A stretch of 64,000 nucleotides of DNA. Origin: a virus. The stretch covers positions 5,180 through 69,179 of the IMG/VR virus record IMGVR_UViG_3300036828_001020. One strand, given 5' to 3'. Position 1 is the stretch's first letter. Each line of letters begins with the position of its first letter. A model generated the notes under the pieces. That model made no database searches and was not told the origin of the DNA. It was given only the letters and a program-made list of their open reading frames with translations. Below, piece after piece: positions 25,833 through 51,311 of this stretch. The translations under genes and the position numbers were made by a program.

Positions 25833-27479
25833 TTAAACTTGCCGAATGTGTTTGGTTTCGGGGAAGCGCTCGGCAAAGGATTTGAGCGCCGCGGCATCCA
25901 TCGCTACTGGGGCTGATCCCAGCTGTGGAGCGCCGGCTTTGGGCTGGACCGCCAGCAATGCTGGATAGGCGCTCGGATGAATCGCCGCCGGGTCGACCCC
26001 GCGCATGCGCAGCGCCTGGGCGTAGACCTGATCCTTGCTGTCAAAGGCTTGGGTCAGCTCGCCGACATAAGGGAAGACCTCGCGCTCGGCCTCGCGGATT
26101 TCCCGTTGCGTGCGCGCCGCAGCGATTTGTGCCGCGCGGACCGCAGCGGCGATCGCCGCATCCATCGCGCCCTTGGTCACCAGGTCAGGTTGTGGGTTTT
26201 TAGTCTCGTCGGCGCTCGGGATGATCGAACGCCTATCCTGTGCGTCCCAGGCCGCATCGGCCGCCTCGTCGTCGTCCTCGCGTTTCTTCTTTTCTTCATC
26301 GGTCTCGTCACGGCCCAGCCGGCGCGCCGCGTCGCGAGCACGGATCGCTTTGATGTCCTGCGCTTTCTCCTCCGGGGGACAGTCTGGGTCCTGATCCTGG
26401 TTGCCCATCGGTACCGCACTGTTCGGCGGCAGCATCGGCGGTTCATCAACAATCCCGCCATTCCCGGTGCCGGCCAGCACCGTTTCGATCAGCGGCAGGA
26501 TTTCGTCGATATCGGCGTCCTGGGCGATCCGCTTGCCGGTCAGCGCCCGTTTGAGGGCGTCCTTCATGCTCATGTTAATCACCTCCGGTTGCATGGGTGG
26601 TTTGGCGTCGCCGATCACGACATCGTGGCCGGCACGGCCCTCGGCGACAGCGGCCACATGGTTGCCGACGATGTTCGTCATGATTCCGTCGTAGCGCTGG
26701 CCCTCGTAGACGCCCGGCGTCATCACCGGCTGGTAGCGATAGGCGCAGCTGAGCTCACGCTTCTCGCCGCTCTCGATCGCGTCGATCGCCGCTTGCGGCC
26801 AGAACACCAGCGAGTTTTTCAGGTATGGCGGCTCAAACCGGGCGTGCGTGCCGGTCGAGCCGATCACCAGTTCGGGCGGATGATCCTGCGCGCTGATCGG
26901 CACGTGCTCGCTGAGGATCGGCAGATTGTTAAAAGTCGCGGTCCCCTTGGCGATCTCGTCGGGGTGGCGCAGCAGCTGATAGGTCTTTTCCGGATCGAGC
27001 CCGAGGCTTTCCCAATCGGGGATCTCCTCGCCTTTGTAGGGGTTGACCGTGGCCTTGCTGATATTCGCCTCCTCGACGTGCAGCCGGCCGTCGGCGTCCT
27101 TTGAGCGCACCGAGTTCCGGTCGAGTGCCATGTCGTTGGCGGCGGTCAATTCGCGGGTCAGCAGCGGTCGGCTGCCCTCGGCATCGCAGTCCGCGTCTGC
27201 GCTGTGCTCCTCCTCGCCGCCTTCCTCGCCGACCCAGGCGAGCAGACCGCGCAGGAAGTTTTTGAGGGTGTCTAAAAAGGCCCCGGTGGTTTGGTCGTGG
27301 CCCTCGCCAACACTCTCGACAAACTCTTTACCGACCGACTGCGGAATGCCGAGCGTGGAGTGCCCGCTTGCCGCGGCATGCATCGCGCGGCGCTGCGGCT
27401 CCGAGGTCGGCGGATCGGTGGCGAGTTCATTATCGCCGCCGGCGCCAACCCCGGAAATCGGCCCTCCCACCTCTGGCAT
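25833..27479 (-). CDS. Prohead protease / scaffold (DUF2213-like)
   Basis: DGRLHV..ISKATVNPY.G.EIP..KRELSCAYRY..GNHVA.V.EGRAG. Confidence 0.9.
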   Translation of the reverse strand: MPEVGGPISGVGAGGDNELATDPPTSEPQRRAMHAAASGHSTLGIPQSVGKEFVESVGEGHDQTTGAFLDTLKNFLRGLLAWVGEEGGEEEHSADADCDAEGSRPLLTRELTAANDMALDRNSVRSKDADGRLHVEEANISKATVNPYKGEEIPDWESLGLDPEKTYQLLRHPDEIAKGTATFNNLPILSEHVPISAQDHPPELVIGSTGTHARFEPPYLKNSLVFWPQAAIDAIESGEKRELSCAYRYQPVMTPGVYEGQRYDGIMTNIVGNHVAAVAEGRAGHDVVIGDAKPPMQPEVINMSMKDALKRALTGKRIAQDADIDEILPLIETVLAGTGNGGIVDEPPMLPPNSAVPMGNQDQDPDCPPEEKAQDIKAIRARDAARRLGRDETDEEKKKREDDDEAADAAWDAQDRRSIIPSADETKNPQPDLVTKGAMDAAIAAAVRAAQIAAARTQREIREAEREVFPYVGELTQAFDSKDQVYAQALRMRGVDPAAIHPSAYPALLAVQPKAGAPQLGSAPVAMDAAALKSFAERFPETKHIRQV

Positions 27480-27529
27480 AGATACCTCCCTGCTCCTGGC
27501 ATGGATTACCTCCCTTGAAAGCCCCGCCG

Positions 27530-27907
27530 ATGCGCTACCCGATGCCGAATTACCCTTGCGAGTTTGAAATCCCGGATGCCTGGCTCGCCGAGGCCGGCAT
27601 CAATGGTTTCACTCGAACCATGCCGGCGTACCGATCGACCCCGGCGGCGGTGCCGGTGTCATTGCGCGAGATCGAGCCGCCGTATCGCACGCCAGAAAAA
27701 GATTGGCGCGGTTTCGACCGCGGCCGACTGATCTCCGTTCTGAACGGCATTGCGACGGGGGCAGAGATCGAGCCGGTGCCGCTGCTCAAACTACCGCCCG
27801 GTGATTTCCTGCCGTCGCCGTACGGCTATCGAGTGCGTAATGGATTTCATCGGTTCTATGCGTCGATCGCAGCGGGCTTCGAGTGCTTGCCGGCGGAGAT
27901 CTCATGA
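27530..27907 (+). CDS. Stand-alone ParB/Srx-fold protein
   Basis: IEPV..YRVRNGFHRFYAS..G (GxHR motif). Confidence 0.65.
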   Translation: MRYPMPNYPCEFEIPDAWLAEAGINGFTRTMPAYRSTPAAVPVSLREIEPPYRTPEKDWRGFDRGRLISVLNGIATGAEIEPVPLLKLPPGDFLPSPYGYRVRNGFHRFYASIAAGFECLPAEIS

Positions 27908-28245
27908 GCACGCGAGAGGACGGACTTGTCAGACAGTGGCTGGCGCTGCCGCGGGCTGAGCGGTTGCGGTACGTGCGCCACGATCCGGCCTATCAGCGAG
28001 CCAACGAGCTCGCCGATCATCTGATGGAGCTGCTGCACGCCGCCGTGCGCTCCGGCGAGGTTGGCCTCGAAATCTCAGGCATCGCGGCGCCGACAATCGT
28101 CGAGCGCAACCGCGCGATCCTCGCTCGCTATTTGAGCCCCCTCAAAGCGGCGGCGTGGATGGCCGAGGGGCCGATGGACCCGGACCTCCTCGAATATTGC
28201 ATCTTGAAGCTGATCGCTGCCGGGGTGTCGATCCCGAAACCGTGA
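27904..28245 (+). CDS. Hypothetical protein
   Basis: ATGA coupling with the previous gene, GGAG SD. Confidence 0.6.
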   Translation: MSTREDGLVRQWLALPRAERLRYVRHDPAYQRANELADHLMELLHAAVRSGEVGLEISGIAAPTIVERNRAILARYLSPLKAAAWMAEGPMDPDLLEYCILKLIAAGVSIPKP

Positions 28246-28249
28246 GCTG

Positions 28250-28277
28250 AAAAAAAGCGGCCCCAGGAGGAGCCGCC
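28250..28277 (-). terminator. Intrinsic terminator
   Basis: GCGGCTCC-tcct-GGGGCCGC followed by T7 on the minus strand. Confidence 0.65.
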
Positions 28278-28392
28278 AAGGTCATGGGAGACGTAGGAAT
28301 GCCCGGTCTTGGACGAGACCGGACACTCTTGTCTTGGCCCACAGCCCGACCACCGCGCCACCAAATAATTTGGCGTCAGCGCATTTTTATGT

Positions 28393-28421
28393 TTGACTTT
28401 GTTGGCGTCACGCCATATATT
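28393..28421 (+). promoter_or_regulatory. Sigma70 promoter
   Basis: TTGACT-N17-TATATT with an AT-rich upstream element. Confidence 0.75.
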
Positions 28422-28492
28422 CTCATCATCAGAACAACGACACGCCAGCCCGGTGGAAGGCCCGGACCGAGAGCCAGAGCGCCTGTAAACGA

Positions 28493-28538
28493 GGGTCGCG
28501 CCGTACAAGTCGGCGCCTGATGAGCAGGAGCGAAACCC
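28493..28538 (+). ncRNA. Type III hammerhead ribozyme
   Basis: GGGUC / GCGCCG-uacaagu-CGGCGC / CUGAUGA / GC-agga-GC / GAAA / CCC: complete catalytic core and all three stems pair. Confidence 0.8.
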
Positions 28539-28539
28539 A

Positions 28540-28809
28540 ATGTACACGATCGCGGTTGCCGGTAGCGAATTCGAGACCAGCGCAGATATCCGCGCCAAAC
28601 TGCACCAGGCTGACGAAATCGAGGCACGGCACATCAAGGCGATCGATCGTATCGAACGCGAGGGGATCAAGTATTCGAACGAGGATTTCGACATTCTGTC
28701 GGGTGCGCGGCACGCGATTTGGCGCCGCGGAGAATGCGAGCGCCTTGGGCTACATACCAATTGCAGCGCAACGGAATTCTGGGGCGCTAAGGCAAGGGAA
28801 ACCCAATGA
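28540..28809 (+). CDS. Hypothetical protein
   Basis: AGGAG SD lies inside the ribozyme. Confidence 0.65.
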   Translation: MYTIAVAGSEFETSADIRAKLHQADEIEARHIKAIDRIEREGIKYSNEDFDILSGARHAIWRRGECERLGLHTNCSATEFWGAKARETQ

Positions 28810-28940
28810 ACAAGCTGACAGACAACAACGGATACCTGGTAGCGCGGGGATCAAAGGCGAAGCTGCTGGCCTTCGTCGAGAAACAGCGCCAGTTCGACCC
28901 GGGTTATGCCCTTTGGCTCAACGGAGTGCGGGTGCTTTAA
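28806..28940 (+). CDS. Small hypothetical protein (44 aa)
   Basis: ATGA coupling; MNKLTDNNGYLVARG. Confidence 0.5.
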   Translation: MNKLTDNNGYLVARGSKAKLLAFVEKQRQFDPGYALWLNGVRVL

Positions 28941-29093
28941 GCACCCAGGAGCGAAACACGATGATGCGGCCGACCTAGAGCGGCCGCCCCTCCGGGATGG
29001 GGCACACCCGGCGGTGCCGCGGCCACTTCGAGCCGCGGGCCGGACAGTTCATAAAATCGGCAATCCTGCCGGGCTCTTTTTTCGGAGGCTCTC

Positions 29094-29297
29094 ATGAGCG
29101 CTTCTCAAATCGCTGCGCGCCACTTCGGCCGCCCGGCCGTTGCCACCCTCGCCCGCAAGGGCATTCGGGTGATTGGCCTGCAAGCCATCCCCGACGAGCG
29201 CGGCTCGTTCCTCAACTCGACCACCGGTTACGTTGTCGACGACAACGGCTGCGGTCGGGTGTGGACCTTCCGCCAAGTAAGTGAGGCGGCGCGGTGA
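29094..29297 (+). CDS. Hypothetical protein
   Basis: GGAGG SD. Confidence 0.6.
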   Translation: MSASQIAARHFGRPAVATLARKGIRVIGLQAIPDERGSFLNSTTGYVVDDNGCGRVWTFRQVSEAAR

Positions 29298-29539
29298 GCG
29301 CCGCCCGGGAGGATCCGCCGCTCGACTTGCGCGAGCAGATCGCCCGCATCGACCGGGCGATCATCGAAGGCGGCAAGCTGCGCGCCGAAACCGAAAAATT
29401 CGTCGCCGAGCAGCGCAAGCTGGAAGCCGAGGCCCGCAAGTTCGACCGCGAGCGCTGGCTGGCCCCCGCGCTGGCGATTGCCGCGGTGATCGGCGGGTTG
29501 CTCGGCACCGCCTCGTTTATTGCCAAGCTGATCCAATGA
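29294..29539 (+). CDS. Coiled-coil protein with C-terminal TM helix
   Basis: KLRAETEKFVAEQRKLEAEARK followed by a hydrophobic tail. Confidence 0.65.
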   Translation: MSAAREDPPLDLREQIARIDRAIIEGGKLRAETEKFVAEQRKLEAEARKFDRERWLAPALAIAAVIGGLLGTASFIAKLIQ

Positions 29540-29748
29540 CCGGGCCCGAGTTGCGCGCTTTCCGCAAGCGCTTAGGCCTCACCCAGGCGCAATTTGCCGA
29601 AACCCTCGGTATCTCGGCCAGCCAGCTTCACAACTATGAACACGAGCGCGACCGCCGCACCGGCGAACCCTGCCCGGTTCCCAAGCTCGTAGCACTCGCC
29701 TGCATCGCACTGGAAACGCCCGCCCAACATGAAAGGATCAACCGATGA
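29536..29748 (+). CDS. XRE-family HTH protein
   Basis: ELRAFRKRLGLTQAQFAETLGIS..NYE. Confidence 0.8.
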   Translation: MTGPELRAFRKRLGLTQAQFAETLGISASQLHNYEHERDRRTGEPCPVPKLVALACIALETPAQHERINR

Positions 29749-29942
29749 TCGCGCTACCGTTTGACGATCACCTCGAGTTTGCCGAGGCGCTCTATTATGC
29801 GCACACAGCGGCCAAGCTCACTCGGGTGGAAAATCCGCACGCCGAACCGCGCAGCCCGGAGTGGGAAGAGGTTAGCGAAGACGAACGCTCGATTTGGCGG
29901 TTGACCGCCAGACGGTTGTTGCAGCTGCATCCAACGAGCTGA
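29745..29942 (+). CDS. Hypothetical protein
   Basis: ATGA coupling. Confidence 0.55.
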   Translation: MIALPFDDHLEFAEALYYAHTAAKLTRVENPHAEPRSPEWEEVSEDERSIWRLTARRLLQLHPTS

Positions 29943-30215: not shown

Positions 30216-31058
30216 TTACTCCTCGAACACGGCCCCGGCCGTGTAGCCGGCATCGCGTAACGCCCGCAGGTATTCCGGATTGCGCGGAAGTCGAAGCGTT
30301 GCGCCGGGTTCCGGGGCTTCGCCGATCACCGATTCCGGCCAGCACCGACAGTTGATCCAAGCACCTGCGTGCGCCCGCACTTCCGGTTGTCCAGGCTCGG
30401 TGACGACCGGCGGATCGCTCCATAGAACAAATTGGCCCTCGAGCTCTTTGTGACGCGGGCGAACGTCGGCGTCGCGGGCGGTGCGCCACCAGTAGCCCGG
30501 TGAGCCGACATGCTCGGCGCGCACCTGCGTCAGGTTGGTGGCGGCCCGCCCGGTCTCGGTGCGGGCGATCGTGTTGGCTCGGCTCCGGGTGACCTCGCCG
30601 GTGCGCATGATCTCCTTGGCGATCTCGTTCCAGCGCTCGCCGCTGGTCAGCCCAAGGGTCGCCAATTCGTGCACGCGGTCGGCGGCCTCGCGCGGCAATG
30701 AGGTGATCAAGTCGACCTGCTCGGTCATCAGCCGCTGAAAGGTCAACCCGGTCGGCGCGGTGGCGATCTCGCGGCGCAATCGGCGGCCGATCTCTTTACC
30801 GAGCTCGTGCCACGCATTGGCGTCACGCCGCGCCACCTCGGCGAGCATCCGCTCGGCCTGGGTTTCGGCCCACGGCTCGAGGATCACCGCATAGGCTTGG
30901 AGTGTCTCCTCGAGCTGGCGCAGCCCTGCCGGGTCATCAGGCGCAAACCCGCGCACGATATCGTCAATGTGGCGCGCGATGCGGCGCAGGTTGCGGGCAT
31001 ATTCGGCCTCGGCGCGGCGCACCGTCTCAAACGGCCGGCGGCGCCGCGAACGCGCCAC
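30216..31058 (-). CDS. Head morphogenesis protein (Mu gpF-like)
   Basis: RANTIARTET..YWWRTARDADVRPRH..HAG..INCRC. Confidence 0.9.
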   Translation of the reverse strand: MARSRRRRPFETVRRAEAEYARNLRRIARHIDDIVRGFAPDDPAGLRQLEETLQAYAVILEPWAETQAERMLAEVARRDANAWHELGKEIGRRLRREIATAPTGLTFQRLMTEQVDLITSLPREAADRVHELATLGLTSGERWNEIAKEIMRTGEVTRSRANTIARTETGRAATNLTQVRAEHVGSPGYWWRTARDADVRPRHKELEGQFVLWSDPPVVTEPGQPEVRAHAGAWINCRCWPESVIGEAPEPGATLRLPRNPEYLRALRDAGYTAGAVFEE

Positions 31059-31061
31059 CGG

Positions 31062-32723
31062 TCACACCCCGCTGCGCGCGGCCCTGCGGGTTTCGGCCCG
31101 GCCGGCAAGCGGATCGCGGCCACCACTGCCGGACGGCGAGGCGACCGAGGTAACGGTCTGGCCCTGCTGCGGCCCGCCGCCGGCGGGACGCGGTGGCCCG
31201 CCCAGCCGCTCGCTCGGCGCCATCGGCGGCGGTGGCGGCGGCTCGGGCAAGTCGTCGGGGTCGAGCTCCAGCCCTGCATACGGGCTCTCGGGGTCGGTCG
31301 CCAATACCTGGCGCACCTCCTGGTTGGAGATCGCACCCATCTGCTCGTATTGATCGTGAATGTCGGCCTTGGTCTTTTGCACCGCTGCTTGTCCGGCCTC
31401 GTCGAGCTGCCACAGCGATTTGAAATCAAACGTGATGTCGGGATCGACCCGGCCAAACAACGAGAGTTGGACAAAGTCGATGACCCGGGTCAGCGGCTCG
31501 CGAAACAGCTTGTTCTGAACGGCTCTGATCCAGTCATAGAAAGATCTAATTTCCCCTTCGCTGCTGGCATTGAGACCTGACGGGGTAAGTCCGGTATATT
31601 TAATAAGTGGAAGGCCAGAAATCGAGCAGATGTGCTCTTGACTTTGCGCCTGCAGCGCCTCGAGACCACCCAACGGTGTCGAGATGTTCTGAAACTCTTC
31701 GGTATCCTTGTTGAGGATCAACAGCCCTCGGTTGTCGCGGAAAAAATTGTAGAGATCGGCGCGGTTCTCGACGATTGGCTGGCCGCCCCGGTTCAGCATC
31801 GCGGTCAGATCGGTCAGCATCACGCTGGTCGAGAACGAGCGGATCAGATCGGCGACCGAGTCGCGGGTCTGCACCCATTTGTCGATGTAGGGCTTGGCCA
31901 TCTGCGACAGCGGCAGACCACCAAACATATAGGCGGGCTTTAACAGATCCCGGACCGGGCGCCCGACCAGGGTCAGCAGTCGCGTGGCGTGGATCTGCTT
32001 ACCCATGACAAACCAGCTTTGCGGCTTGTACCAATCGGCGCGCAGCGGGTCAGAGCTGTTGTAATCGATCGGATAGGTCCACACCGGCTCGACGGTGCGC
32101 ACCGCCTTTAGACCGCCCTTGCGGACCTTGGCGAGCGAAGTCTCGTCGCGGCCATGGCCGATCGAGGTCTTCAGCTCGTTGGGGTTATCAGTGGTGCCGA
32201 GATCAAGGTAGAGGTGCCCGCGGCCAAAAAAACAGTCGAGCTCGGCCAACTCATTACATGCATCCTGCACGCCAAGTCGTTTGAGCTCGTCATAGATCGC
32301 GTTGATTTCGAGGGTCTTGTCCTTGTCGCTTGAGCTTTTGAGCTCGATCCACTCGCGGGTCATCTCCGAGGCCATGACTTCCGCGAGACGCCGGTACTCG
32401 CCGCGCTGCGCCAGCTCGGACAGCACCGGATAGCCGAGAAAGCTCAGCCCATCGGTATAGTAGACGGCGAGCAATTGCTCGGCCGCCCAATTGGTCGCGG
32501 AACCGAGATTGCTGTCCATCGCCATCGTGGAACGGTCCGGCGGCACGACCCCGGGCATTGGCGGCTTGACCGCAAAGGTCGGCTGTCGCGGTTTGCCGCT
32601 CGGTATCTCGCCGCGCCGGCCGGCATTGTGCAGTGCCGTGGCAAAGTCGATCACCGCAGCCGCTACACCCCGACGTTTGCGTGGCGGCGAGGGGCCGCCG
32701 GGCGGCATGTTGACGACAGTCAC
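31062..32723 (-). CDS. Portal protein (DUF1073-like)
   Basis: FLGYPVLSELAQRGEYR..EMTREWI..GLTPSGLNASSEGEIRSFYD. Confidence 0.92.
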   Translation of the reverse strand: MTVVNMPPGGPSPPRKRRGVAAAVIDFATALHNAGRRGEIPSGKPRQPTFAVKPPMPGVVPPDRSTMAMDSNLGSATNWAAEQLLAVYYTDGLSFLGYPVLSELAQRGEYRRLAEVMASEMTREWIELKSSSDKDKTLEINAIYDELKRLGVQDACNELAELDCFFGRGHLYLDLGTTDNPNELKTSIGHGRDETSLAKVRKGGLKAVRTVEPVWTYPIDYNSSDPLRADWYKPQSWFVMGKQIHATRLLTLVGRPVRDLLKPAYMFGGLPLSQMAKPYIDKWVQTRDSVADLIRSFSTSVMLTDLTAMLNRGGQPIVENRADLYNFFRDNRGLLILNKDTEEFQNISTPLGGLEALQAQSQEHICSISGLPLIKYTGLTPSGLNASSEGEIRSFYDWIRAVQNKLFREPLTRVIDFVQLSLFGRVDPDITFDFKSLWQLDEAGQAAVQKTKADIHDQYEQMGAISNQEVRQVLATDPESPYAGLELDPDDLPEPPPPPPMAPSERLGGPPRPAGGGPQQGQTVTSVASPSGSGGRDPLAGRAETRRAARSGV

Positions 32724-50581: not shown

Positions 50582-50920
50582 ATGATGGCGATGGTCAAAA
50601 GGGTATGGATCGCGCAGTGTTTGTGCCCGGCGCGGCACTGCATCATGGCGACCGCAGGCGAGGCGATGACGCCGGCCGAGGTCGAAGAGCGGGTCACCCG
50701 CCCGCTGCGCGACAAAGTCATGAGGTGGTTGCTAGACGGTACAATAAACCCGTGGTGCGCGCTGTGCGACGCCAAGGCCGAGACCTGGCATTTCGAGACC
50801 GGGCGCACCCGCTGGGCCTCGCTTGACGACGCCCGCCCCGAATTGGAGAAGAACCAGGCCGAGCAAGCGGTGACCCGCGCGATGTGGGGCGACACCCATC
50901 GCCGGAAGCCCGATGCCTGA
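50582..50920 (+). CDS. Cys-rich hypothetical protein
   Basis: QCLCPARHCI..NPWCALC. Confidence 0.65.
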   Translation: MMAMVKRVWIAQCLCPARHCIMATAGEAMTPAEVEERVTRPLRDKVMRWLLDGTINPWCALCDAKAETWHFETGRTRWASLDDARPELEKNQAEQAVTRAMWGDTHRRKPDA

Positions 50921-51311
50921 TGAATCTTCTGACGCAGAAAAGGATGCGAGAATGCGTGTGTACACCGCTATCGGAGAGGAACTTGATCTCGTCGCTGCTG
51001 ACTTATTCGGAAAAGATTTCGTTCGAAGTGATGGCGAAACTGATGCCGCGTTCCGGCATCGCATGATCCGCCGCATGGCGGCGCGGTCAGCTCGGGAAAT
51101 AACCTGCCCCAGATCCGGGGAGGCGTGTCGAGAGGAACTGTGCGCGACATCGGGCTGGTGTGTGGCCGCTGGTTGGCCAAATGCGGAAATGAAGACAATT
51201 CCGCCTTTAGACCATTACCCGGAACCGCCGTCCGCGCCCGACAAAAAATACAGTTTCTCGGATGTGAACCCTTGGGTTCAGCCGGCACGGCGCCGCCGGC
51301 ACGATGCCTGA
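50913..51311 (+). CDS. Hypothetical protein
   Basis: Coupled ORF; GETDAAFR and a four-Cys cluster. Confidence 0.55.
   Translation: MPDESSDAEKDARMRVYTAIGEELDLVAADLFGKDFVRSDGETDAAFRHRMIRRMAARSAREITCPRSGEACREELCATSGWCVAAGWPNAEMKTIPPLDHYPEPPSAPDKKYSFSDVNPWVQPARRRRHDA

Follow-up and report, generated by a model that had tools for sequence, protein, structure and literature searches.

Hundreds of bacterial and phage hammerhead ribozymes were described by Perreault et al. in 2011 (PMC3088659). According to the parts of that paper drawn on here, a stem II of 2 bp is common among them, and phage and prophage hammerheads have an intergenic location, flanking prophage genes; in one halovirus, a hammerhead is placed 13 nt ahead of a start codon, and the 5' end of the transcript was mapped near the cleavage site. 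The role proposed for prophage hammerheads is the cutting of long phage transcripts, and in the same parts of the paper the biological role of phage and prophage hammerheads is still described as unclear. Concerning viruses with RNA genomes, an article of 2026 (PMC13725137) reports, in the portion used here, hammerheads in the 5'-UTR of fungal and plant RNA viruses that are needed for the initiation of translation.

The element studied here belongs to a 69-kb soil phage (IMG/VR record IMGVR_UViG_3300036828_001020; 69,179 bases, completeness estimate 93%), most of which is covered by the window, i.e., the whole stretch of 64,000 nt that was analysed; the leader that carries the ribozyme sits within the head-gene region. 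Among engineered systems, synthetic bacterial aptazymes conceal the ribosome site within a stem of the ribozyme, and RiboJ serves as an insulator. By analogy, the phage element would share with them a ribosome site masked by structure, its expected freeing by self-cleavage, and the removal of a variable 5' leader. It differs from the synthetic switches in being natural, in having no ligand-sensing aptamer, and in carrying the site in loop II instead of an extended stem.

With the hammerheads of Perreault et al. (PMC3088659), as far as the parts used here describe them, the phage element has in common the consensus core, the 2-bp stem II, and the phage intergenic position. Despite this likeness there are differences: the ribosome site is part of the ribozyme itself, in loop II plus stem II, the start codon adjoins stem III, and the pseudoknot between loop I and loop II stressed in those parts is not evident in the window. 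In the literature searched, no natural hammerhead containing a ribosome site was found. The hammerheads of PMC13725137, to judge from the portion used, likewise combine a viral 5'-UTR and a self-cleaving ribozyme tied to the translation of the downstream open reading frame (ORF), a tie that is a prediction in the present case; they are of type I and act in eukaryotic cap-independent translation of RNA viruses, whereas the window derives from a DNA phage with a bacterial Shine-Dalgarno (SD) sequence.

Architecture and genomic setting of the element

The type III hammerhead motif extends over positions 28493-28538 on the plus strand, with all consensus elements present. It is opened by stem III (GGGT/ACCC, 4 bp, 28493-28496 with 28535-28538), after which follow the cleavage nucleotide C17 in hammerhead numbering (C28497), with a predicted cut at 28497/28498 before G28498, and a stem I of 6 bp (28498-28503 with 28511-28516), closed by the 7-nt loop I TACAAGT (28504-28510). 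The 5' part of the core, CTGATGA (C3 to A9), occupies 28517-28523 and leads into a stem II of only 2 bp (G-C and C-G, 28524-28525 with 28530-28531), in which the G10.1-C11.1 pair is present and which carries as loop II the tetraloop AGGA (28526-28529), a sequence that fits R-N-N-A. The core trinucleotide GAA (G12, A13, A14; 28532-28534) then passes directly into the 3' strand of stem III, ACCC, ending at 28538. All conserved core positions (C3 U4 G5 A6 N7 G8 A9 and G12 A13 A14) are occupied as expected, the A15.1-U16.1 pair is formed by A28535 with T28496, and nucleotide 17 is C, not G. Of the three helices, stems I and II are closed by loops and stem III is open. The complete type III core with a predicted cut after C28497, as proposed in the initial annotation, is borne out at these positions, and the element belongs to a covarying class of phage sequences (see below).

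The element is the sole copy in the 69-kb phage record. A lenient descriptor (minimum lengths of 4 bp for stem I, 2 bp for stem II, and 3 bp for stem III) matched the window once and none of 687 windows simulated with a first-order Markov model, both strands being searched. The combination of the window's stem I and CTGATGA occurs at 121 or more loci of genome_contigs (596 billion bases of prokaryote genomes); these are chance matches and served as a control, and at none of the 121 loci listed was a hammerhead completed. A second CTGATGA...GAAA match within the window (50917-50940) was rejected, being without helices. Folding for minimum free energy fails to return the hammerhead fold, a result that is uninformative for hammerheads; the secondary structure of the hammerhead exceeds the minimum by 2.2 kcal/mol, and the values for the class range from 0 to 8.0 kcal/mol with a median of 0.8.

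A Logan contig of 4541 nt from run X1 matches positions 28300-28700 with 0 differences. As X1 is possibly the source sample, this contig is no independent proof of the element elsewhere, and no variants of the ribozyme occurred among the X1 contigs. The search of sequencing runs listed one DNA run, possibly the source, and no RNA run. Two short contigs of the same run show 90-95% likeness over 28617-28700, the conserved middle of the downstream gene; neither of them extends to the ribozyme, and their presence indicates that related phages coexist in that sample.

Head-assembly genes on the minus strand, namely those for a DUF2213 protein (25833-27479), a Mu F-like protein (30216-31058), and the portal (31062-32723), flank a block of small ORFs on the plus strand (27515-29942). 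Within this block, the hammerhead lies in a gap of 294 nt (28246-28539) between two plus-strand ORFs. The gene following the gap, the first of the operon (28540-28809, plus strand), encodes 89 aa without Pfam or PHROG family, and further small plus-strand ORFs of the same block (28806-29942) include one for an XRE-type HTH protein (29536-29748; Pfam HTH_31, 3.4e-09; PHROG transcriptional regulator families). A hairpin resembling a terminator, followed by a T run, is situated on the minus strand at 28256-28277, just past the plus-strand ORF 27883-28245, where it would halt antisense transcripts that enter the plus-strand block from the right-hand head genes.

The sigma70 promoter noted earlier about 70 nt before the cleavage site was recovered as TTGACT-17 nt-TATATT at 28393-28421 on the plus strand (10/12 matches), one sigma70-like site having been found vs 0.6 expected in shuffles. 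Transcription would start near 28425-28428, and the small operon appears to be driven by this sigma70-like promoter. The spacer of the promoter is filled by a palindrome of 13 nt that reads on both strands (TGGCGT-C-ACGCCA, 28403-28415) and is predicted to form a 5-bp stem; a second TTGGCGTCA copy recurs 32 nt upstream of it, at 28370-28378. From its sequence, the palindrome is a putative repressor operator, the candidate repressor possibly being the XRE-type protein of the same block.

A compact hammerhead subclass in phages

A pattern scan of viral_contigs, for which the core and stem II supplied 16 fixed bases and loop II was left free, yielded 116 matches at 114 loci. The same type III architecture is found in 79 of these matches, which represent 41 distinct phage sequences. 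Another 23 matches are without hammerhead structure, about the chance background, and the remaining 14 are hammerhead-like with a closed stem III, an open stem I, and a 2-bp stem II. The loci with closed stem III include L125, L129, L137, L174, L175, L176, and L178, as well as L201, L211, L223, L229, and L236, among others.

Stem I measures exactly 6 bp in all 41 distinct class sequences, and the dinucleotide at the site is TC in 39 of them. Loop I has 7 nt and conforms to T-N-N-R-A-G-T in 38/41, its second base being A or G in each of the 38; the sequence TACAAGT itself occurs in five of the 41. Concerning loop II, AAGA is most frequent (19/41), followed by AGAA (7/41) and AGGA (6/41), such that the AGGA of the window is in itself an ordinary variant. 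The window shares all features of this compact subclass, i.e., the 6-bp stem I, the loop T-R-N-R-A-G-T, the stem II of G-C and C-G, and the R-N-N-A loop II.

Two phages carry two nearby copies each, 600 nt apart at L166 and 326 nt apart at L190, and every one of these copies precedes a ribosome site; the paired copies agree with the published view that ribozymes flank single genes. Among the 42 sequences (the window and the class), 24 have a hairpin with 5 bp or more whose end is no more than 11 nt from U16.1, vs 30% for shuffled upstream sequence. Several more class members possess an upstream hairpin slightly farther away, and the window is without an adjacent one.

Covariation was assessed in an alignment of the window with the 41 class sequences. 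Paired cells make up 93.4% vs 69.7% in shuffles, none of 500 shuffles reaching the observed value, a percentage that is in part due to construction, as the class filter asked for at least 4 stem I and at least 2 stem III pairs. Cells changed on both sides number 124 vs 33.2 in shuffles, again with 0/500 reaching the observed value, and with sliding partners only 27-40% are paired. In stem I, all cells (100%) are paired and five of the six pairs show changes on both sides; the pairs of stem III covary across the class, and in total changes on both sides are found at 9 of 14 pairs. The pairs of stem II and the first pair of stem III are, like the core, constant by construction, since the class pattern was taken from the window. 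While the pairing filter inflates the percentage paired, neither compensatory changes nor a conserved loop can be created by it. The covariation in homologues by which the initial annotation wanted its reading to be judged is present, and it is strong in stems I and III.

The covariance model R2 comprises 39 class members; the window, its relative L128, and the outlier L204 were kept out of it, and neither the window nor the related record G001 forms part of it. It matches the window at 28491-28540 with 61.5 bits (E ~3e-16), and G001 with 52.1 bits. Judged from sequence and covariation, the element in the window is a real hammerhead of type III and belongs to a compact subclass found widely among phage genomes.

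The curated Rfam models give a different picture. The search at gathering scores found no match in the whole window, and a permissive search of 241 nt returned an irrelevant miRNA match only. RF00008 (Hammerhead_3), whose gathering cut-off of 48.5 bits the window does not reach, had no match at E up to 10 in the locus or in the phage record. RF02276 (Hammerhead_II) gave a partial match to the window of 14 bits vs its cut-off of 37; the topology of type II, with an open stem II, does not apply to the window, which has that of type III. The search with hammerhead models suggested in the initial annotation had a divided outcome: the Rfam models miss the window, and the class model R2 recovers it. 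The phage class shares topology and core with RF00008, and class members align to this model from end to end, yet they score 22-36 bits vs the cut-off of 48.5. The seed of RF00008 consists mostly of viroids and plant satellites, and stem II is here 2 bp shorter than in viroid and satellite examples. The low RF00008 scores appear to be due mainly to the stem II of 2 bp in combination with a longer loop I. The negative Rfam result counts against membership as defined by Rfam, but turned out to reflect the models and not the sequence. The stem I consensus ugCCgg ... ccGGca is common to RF02276, the type II model, and the phage type III subclass, which hints that the two may be circular permutations of one lineage.

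Concerning the loops, the parts of Dufour et al. 2009 (PMC2632901) used here state that in most natural hammerheads loop 1 opens with an exposed U and loop 2 is R-N(n)-A, that this U and the A of loop 2 form a reverse Hoogsteen pair, and that the loop motifs are UNmYN for loop 1 and RNnA for loop 2. In the window, T28504 and A28529 correspond to the pairing bases reported there, in a heptaloop that begins with U and an R-N-N-A tetraloop; the published loop 1 has a pyrimidine at the penultimate position, whereas the phage class has G at this position and U at the last. The partial fit of the loops to the published motif, together with the conservation of loop I in the class, makes a tertiary contact of the known type between the U of loop I and the A of loop II likely by analogy, although stem I exceeds stem II by 4 bp, a geometry that may count against the loop-loop contact adopted in our preferred explanation. 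If the contact involves A28529, two bases of the SD sequence would sit in or next to it. Two suggestions of the initial annotation find no support in this comparison. The fold had been called minimal, with loop I and the upstream hairpin as possible stabilisers, a view not supported by loops that partly fit the published loop-loop motif and a loop I conserved across the class; loop I had further been called T-loop-like, and the published motif already accounts for its conserved U and for the A of loop II. No hammerhead T-loop was found in the literature searched.

Related leaders and the upstream hairpin

The hairpin of CCGG (28450-28453) and CCGG (28462-28465) to which the initial annotation drew attention exists on the plus strand at 28450-28465, with 4 bp and a loop of 8 nt (feature limits 28449-28465). 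Four related leaders, those of the window, L001, L239 (record G001), and L253, have the promoter region and this hairpin in common, and the hairpin with its flanks is their best conserved part. Its sequence is absent from the other class members examined, and L253 possesses the hairpin, whereas a hammerhead is absent there; the suggested function as a stabiliser of the ribozyme is accordingly not supported, and the hairpin is regarded as a separate element of the leader. At the promoter, L001 is identical to the window in both hexamers and in their spacing, with a palindrome at the equivalent position that differs from that of the window; in L239, no matching sigma70-like promoter was found.

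An intact ribozyme is found in two of the four leaders only, those of the window and G001. The latter shows a compensatory change from G-C to A-T at the first pair of stem I and a loop I of 6 nt, and its ribozyme directly precedes the ATG of an unrelated ORF of 65 aa. L001 carries a degraded hammerhead (its positions 2414-2500). The 5' half is preserved (cleavage site, stem I, CTGATGA) up to the insertion of a long imperfect hairpin of about 27 nt; beyond it, the GAAA and the 3' strand of stem III are altered and no longer canonical. L001 has a separate SD sequence of its own, fails the descriptor, and reaches with R2 21.6 bits over the 5' half only. An exact scan of viral_contigs for the window's stem I with CTGATGA returned L001 only. 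The stretch between hairpin and ribozyme has diverged heavily among the relatives, whereas the ribozyme has not. As L253 is without a hammerhead, the ribozyme is dispensable for this type of leader, and the comparison of the four leaders suggests that it can be lost or gained within the type.

Concerning the gene behind the leader, a protein search yielded six homologues of the 89-aa protein, in all of which M1, Y2, and I4 are invariant, and this supports the start at 28540. The closest of them, with 83% aa identity, is that of L001, which is also the one locus with a relative of the gene in viral_contigs. In metagenome_contigs one locus (L003, an unrelated sequence) was obtained, among GenBank phages none by DNA or protein, and the protein atlas gave no usable match. 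An upstream ORF ending at the TGA of CTGATGA was considered for the window and for L001 and dismissed, there being no in-frame start past the promoter.

Ribosome site, proposed mechanism, and alternatives

The SD candidate AGGAG (28526-28530, plus strand) consists of loop II and one base of the 3' strand of stem II. It is placed 9 nt before the ATG at 28540, no other SD-like word exists in the 15 nt preceding that ATG, and the start codon begins 1-2 nt past stem III. The initial annotation had located the SD sequence of the gene in loop II and stem II, with stem III ending just before ATG 28540, and both points agree with the sequence. In G001, the AGGAG word and the 9-nt spacing are identical.

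Across the class, an SD sequence with a start codon follows within 120 nt past the ribozyme in 40 of the 42 sequences. The SD sequence is clear of the ribozyme in 28, overlaps the 3' strand of stem III in 9, and is internal to the ribozyme in 3. Of the last three, L162 is probably a spurious GTG call, since an ATG with GGAGG lies a little downstream. The layout with the SD sequence in loop II is, by this tally, special to the window and G001, and a coupling to translation cannot be the role of the class as a whole, given the 28 sequences with an SD outside.

We regard it as rather probable that the hammerhead cleaves the leader off by itself, that the ribosome site is built into the ribozyme, and that the ribozyme fold and the 30S subunit are mutually exclusive. 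The nascent RNA would fold into the ribozyme, aided by the contact that joins the U at the start of loop I to the A at the end of loop II, and a self-cut between C28497 and G28498 would remove the leader of about 70 nt, leaving an mRNA with a 5'-hydroxyl end that begins with the stable hairpin of stem I, 42 nt before the start codon. After cleavage, stem III would be held by 4 bp only, such that the leader fragment may depart; with the fragment gone, the stem II of 2 bp should come apart and make the ribosome site accessible. A 30S subunit bound to AGGAG and the ATG would occlude the core and stem II as well as the 3' strand of stem III, and by this footprint a folded ribozyme and a bound 30S subunit would exclude each other. 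Self-cleavage, the 5' end resulting from it, and effects on translation and mRNA stability are what we infer from these features. The competition of ribozyme folding with ribosome loading, and with it the coupling of cleavage to translation already put forward in the initial annotation, is suggested by the geometry of the overlap.

We only tentatively extend this to a natural cleavage-gated ribosome-binding site, in which the 89-aa protein would be efficiently translated only once cleavage frees stem III, and an early ribosome would block cleavage. Before the cut, the SD bases G28528 and A28529 would be held in the loop II contact and the bases preceding the ATG in stem III.

An active ribozyme may instead merely trim or insulate the 5' end of the mRNA, or split the operon from upstream read-through on the plus strand, the overlap with the ribosome site being a matter of compaction; ribosomes would then easily melt the 2-bp stem II, and cleavage would be without effect on translation. 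We hold this to be possible but somewhat doubtful. It agrees with the prevalence of SD sequences clear of the ribozyme (28/42), with the occurrence of an AGGA loop II also together with a separate downstream SD (L157, L207; AGGA being found in 6/41), and with the processing of transcripts as the role proposed for prophage hammerheads in the parts of PMC3088659 used here. It is less easily reconciled with the window and G001, where the ATG begins 1-2 nt past stem III and the sole SD sequence lies inside the ribozyme, making the two structures mutually exclusive, and with the 9 of 42 further SD sequences in the 3' strand of stem III, which may be more overlap than proximity would need.

That the element is a relic of evolution and has ceased to cleave, the gene being expressed through the promoter and AGGAG alone, seems improbable to us. 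Two of the four related leaders are indeed without an intact hammerhead (degraded in L001, none in L253), the phage has one copy only, and the hammerhead fold differs from the structure predicted to have the minimum free energy; all core positions, both loops, and all helices of the window, however, match the class consensus at 61.5 bits, the compensatory change from G-C to A-T relative to G001 argues for continuing selection on pairing, and the ribozyme is conserved next to a heavily diverged stretch towards the hairpin. Even less probable is that the ribozyme mainly serves to set free the hairpin leader (about 70 nt) as a small RNA whose 3' end is defined, a reading to which the strong conservation of the hairpin and its flanks across the four leaders would lend itself, but to which a leader without ribozyme (L253) and one with a defective ribozyme (L001) are opposed. 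A chance match, finally, for which the negative Rfam searches at gathering scores could be quoted, is practically negligible as an explanation in view of the 0/687 simulated windows and 0 of the 121 listed control loci, the class membership, and the covariation.

The hammerhead in the window is thus ordinary in kind, a phage hammerhead of a known family, and the overlap with the ribosome site is what is unusual about it. Annotation that relies on Rfam cut-offs will miss such elements, of which one narrow pattern scan yielded at least 41 distinct sequences. Since in the window and in G001 the ribosome site and start codon are either contained in the ribozyme or directly border it, control of translation and trimming of the mRNA should be separable in these two. 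If the cleavage-gated reading is true, phage hammerheads would, considered together with the 9 of 42 SD sequences that overlap stem III, time or license the translation of the next gene.
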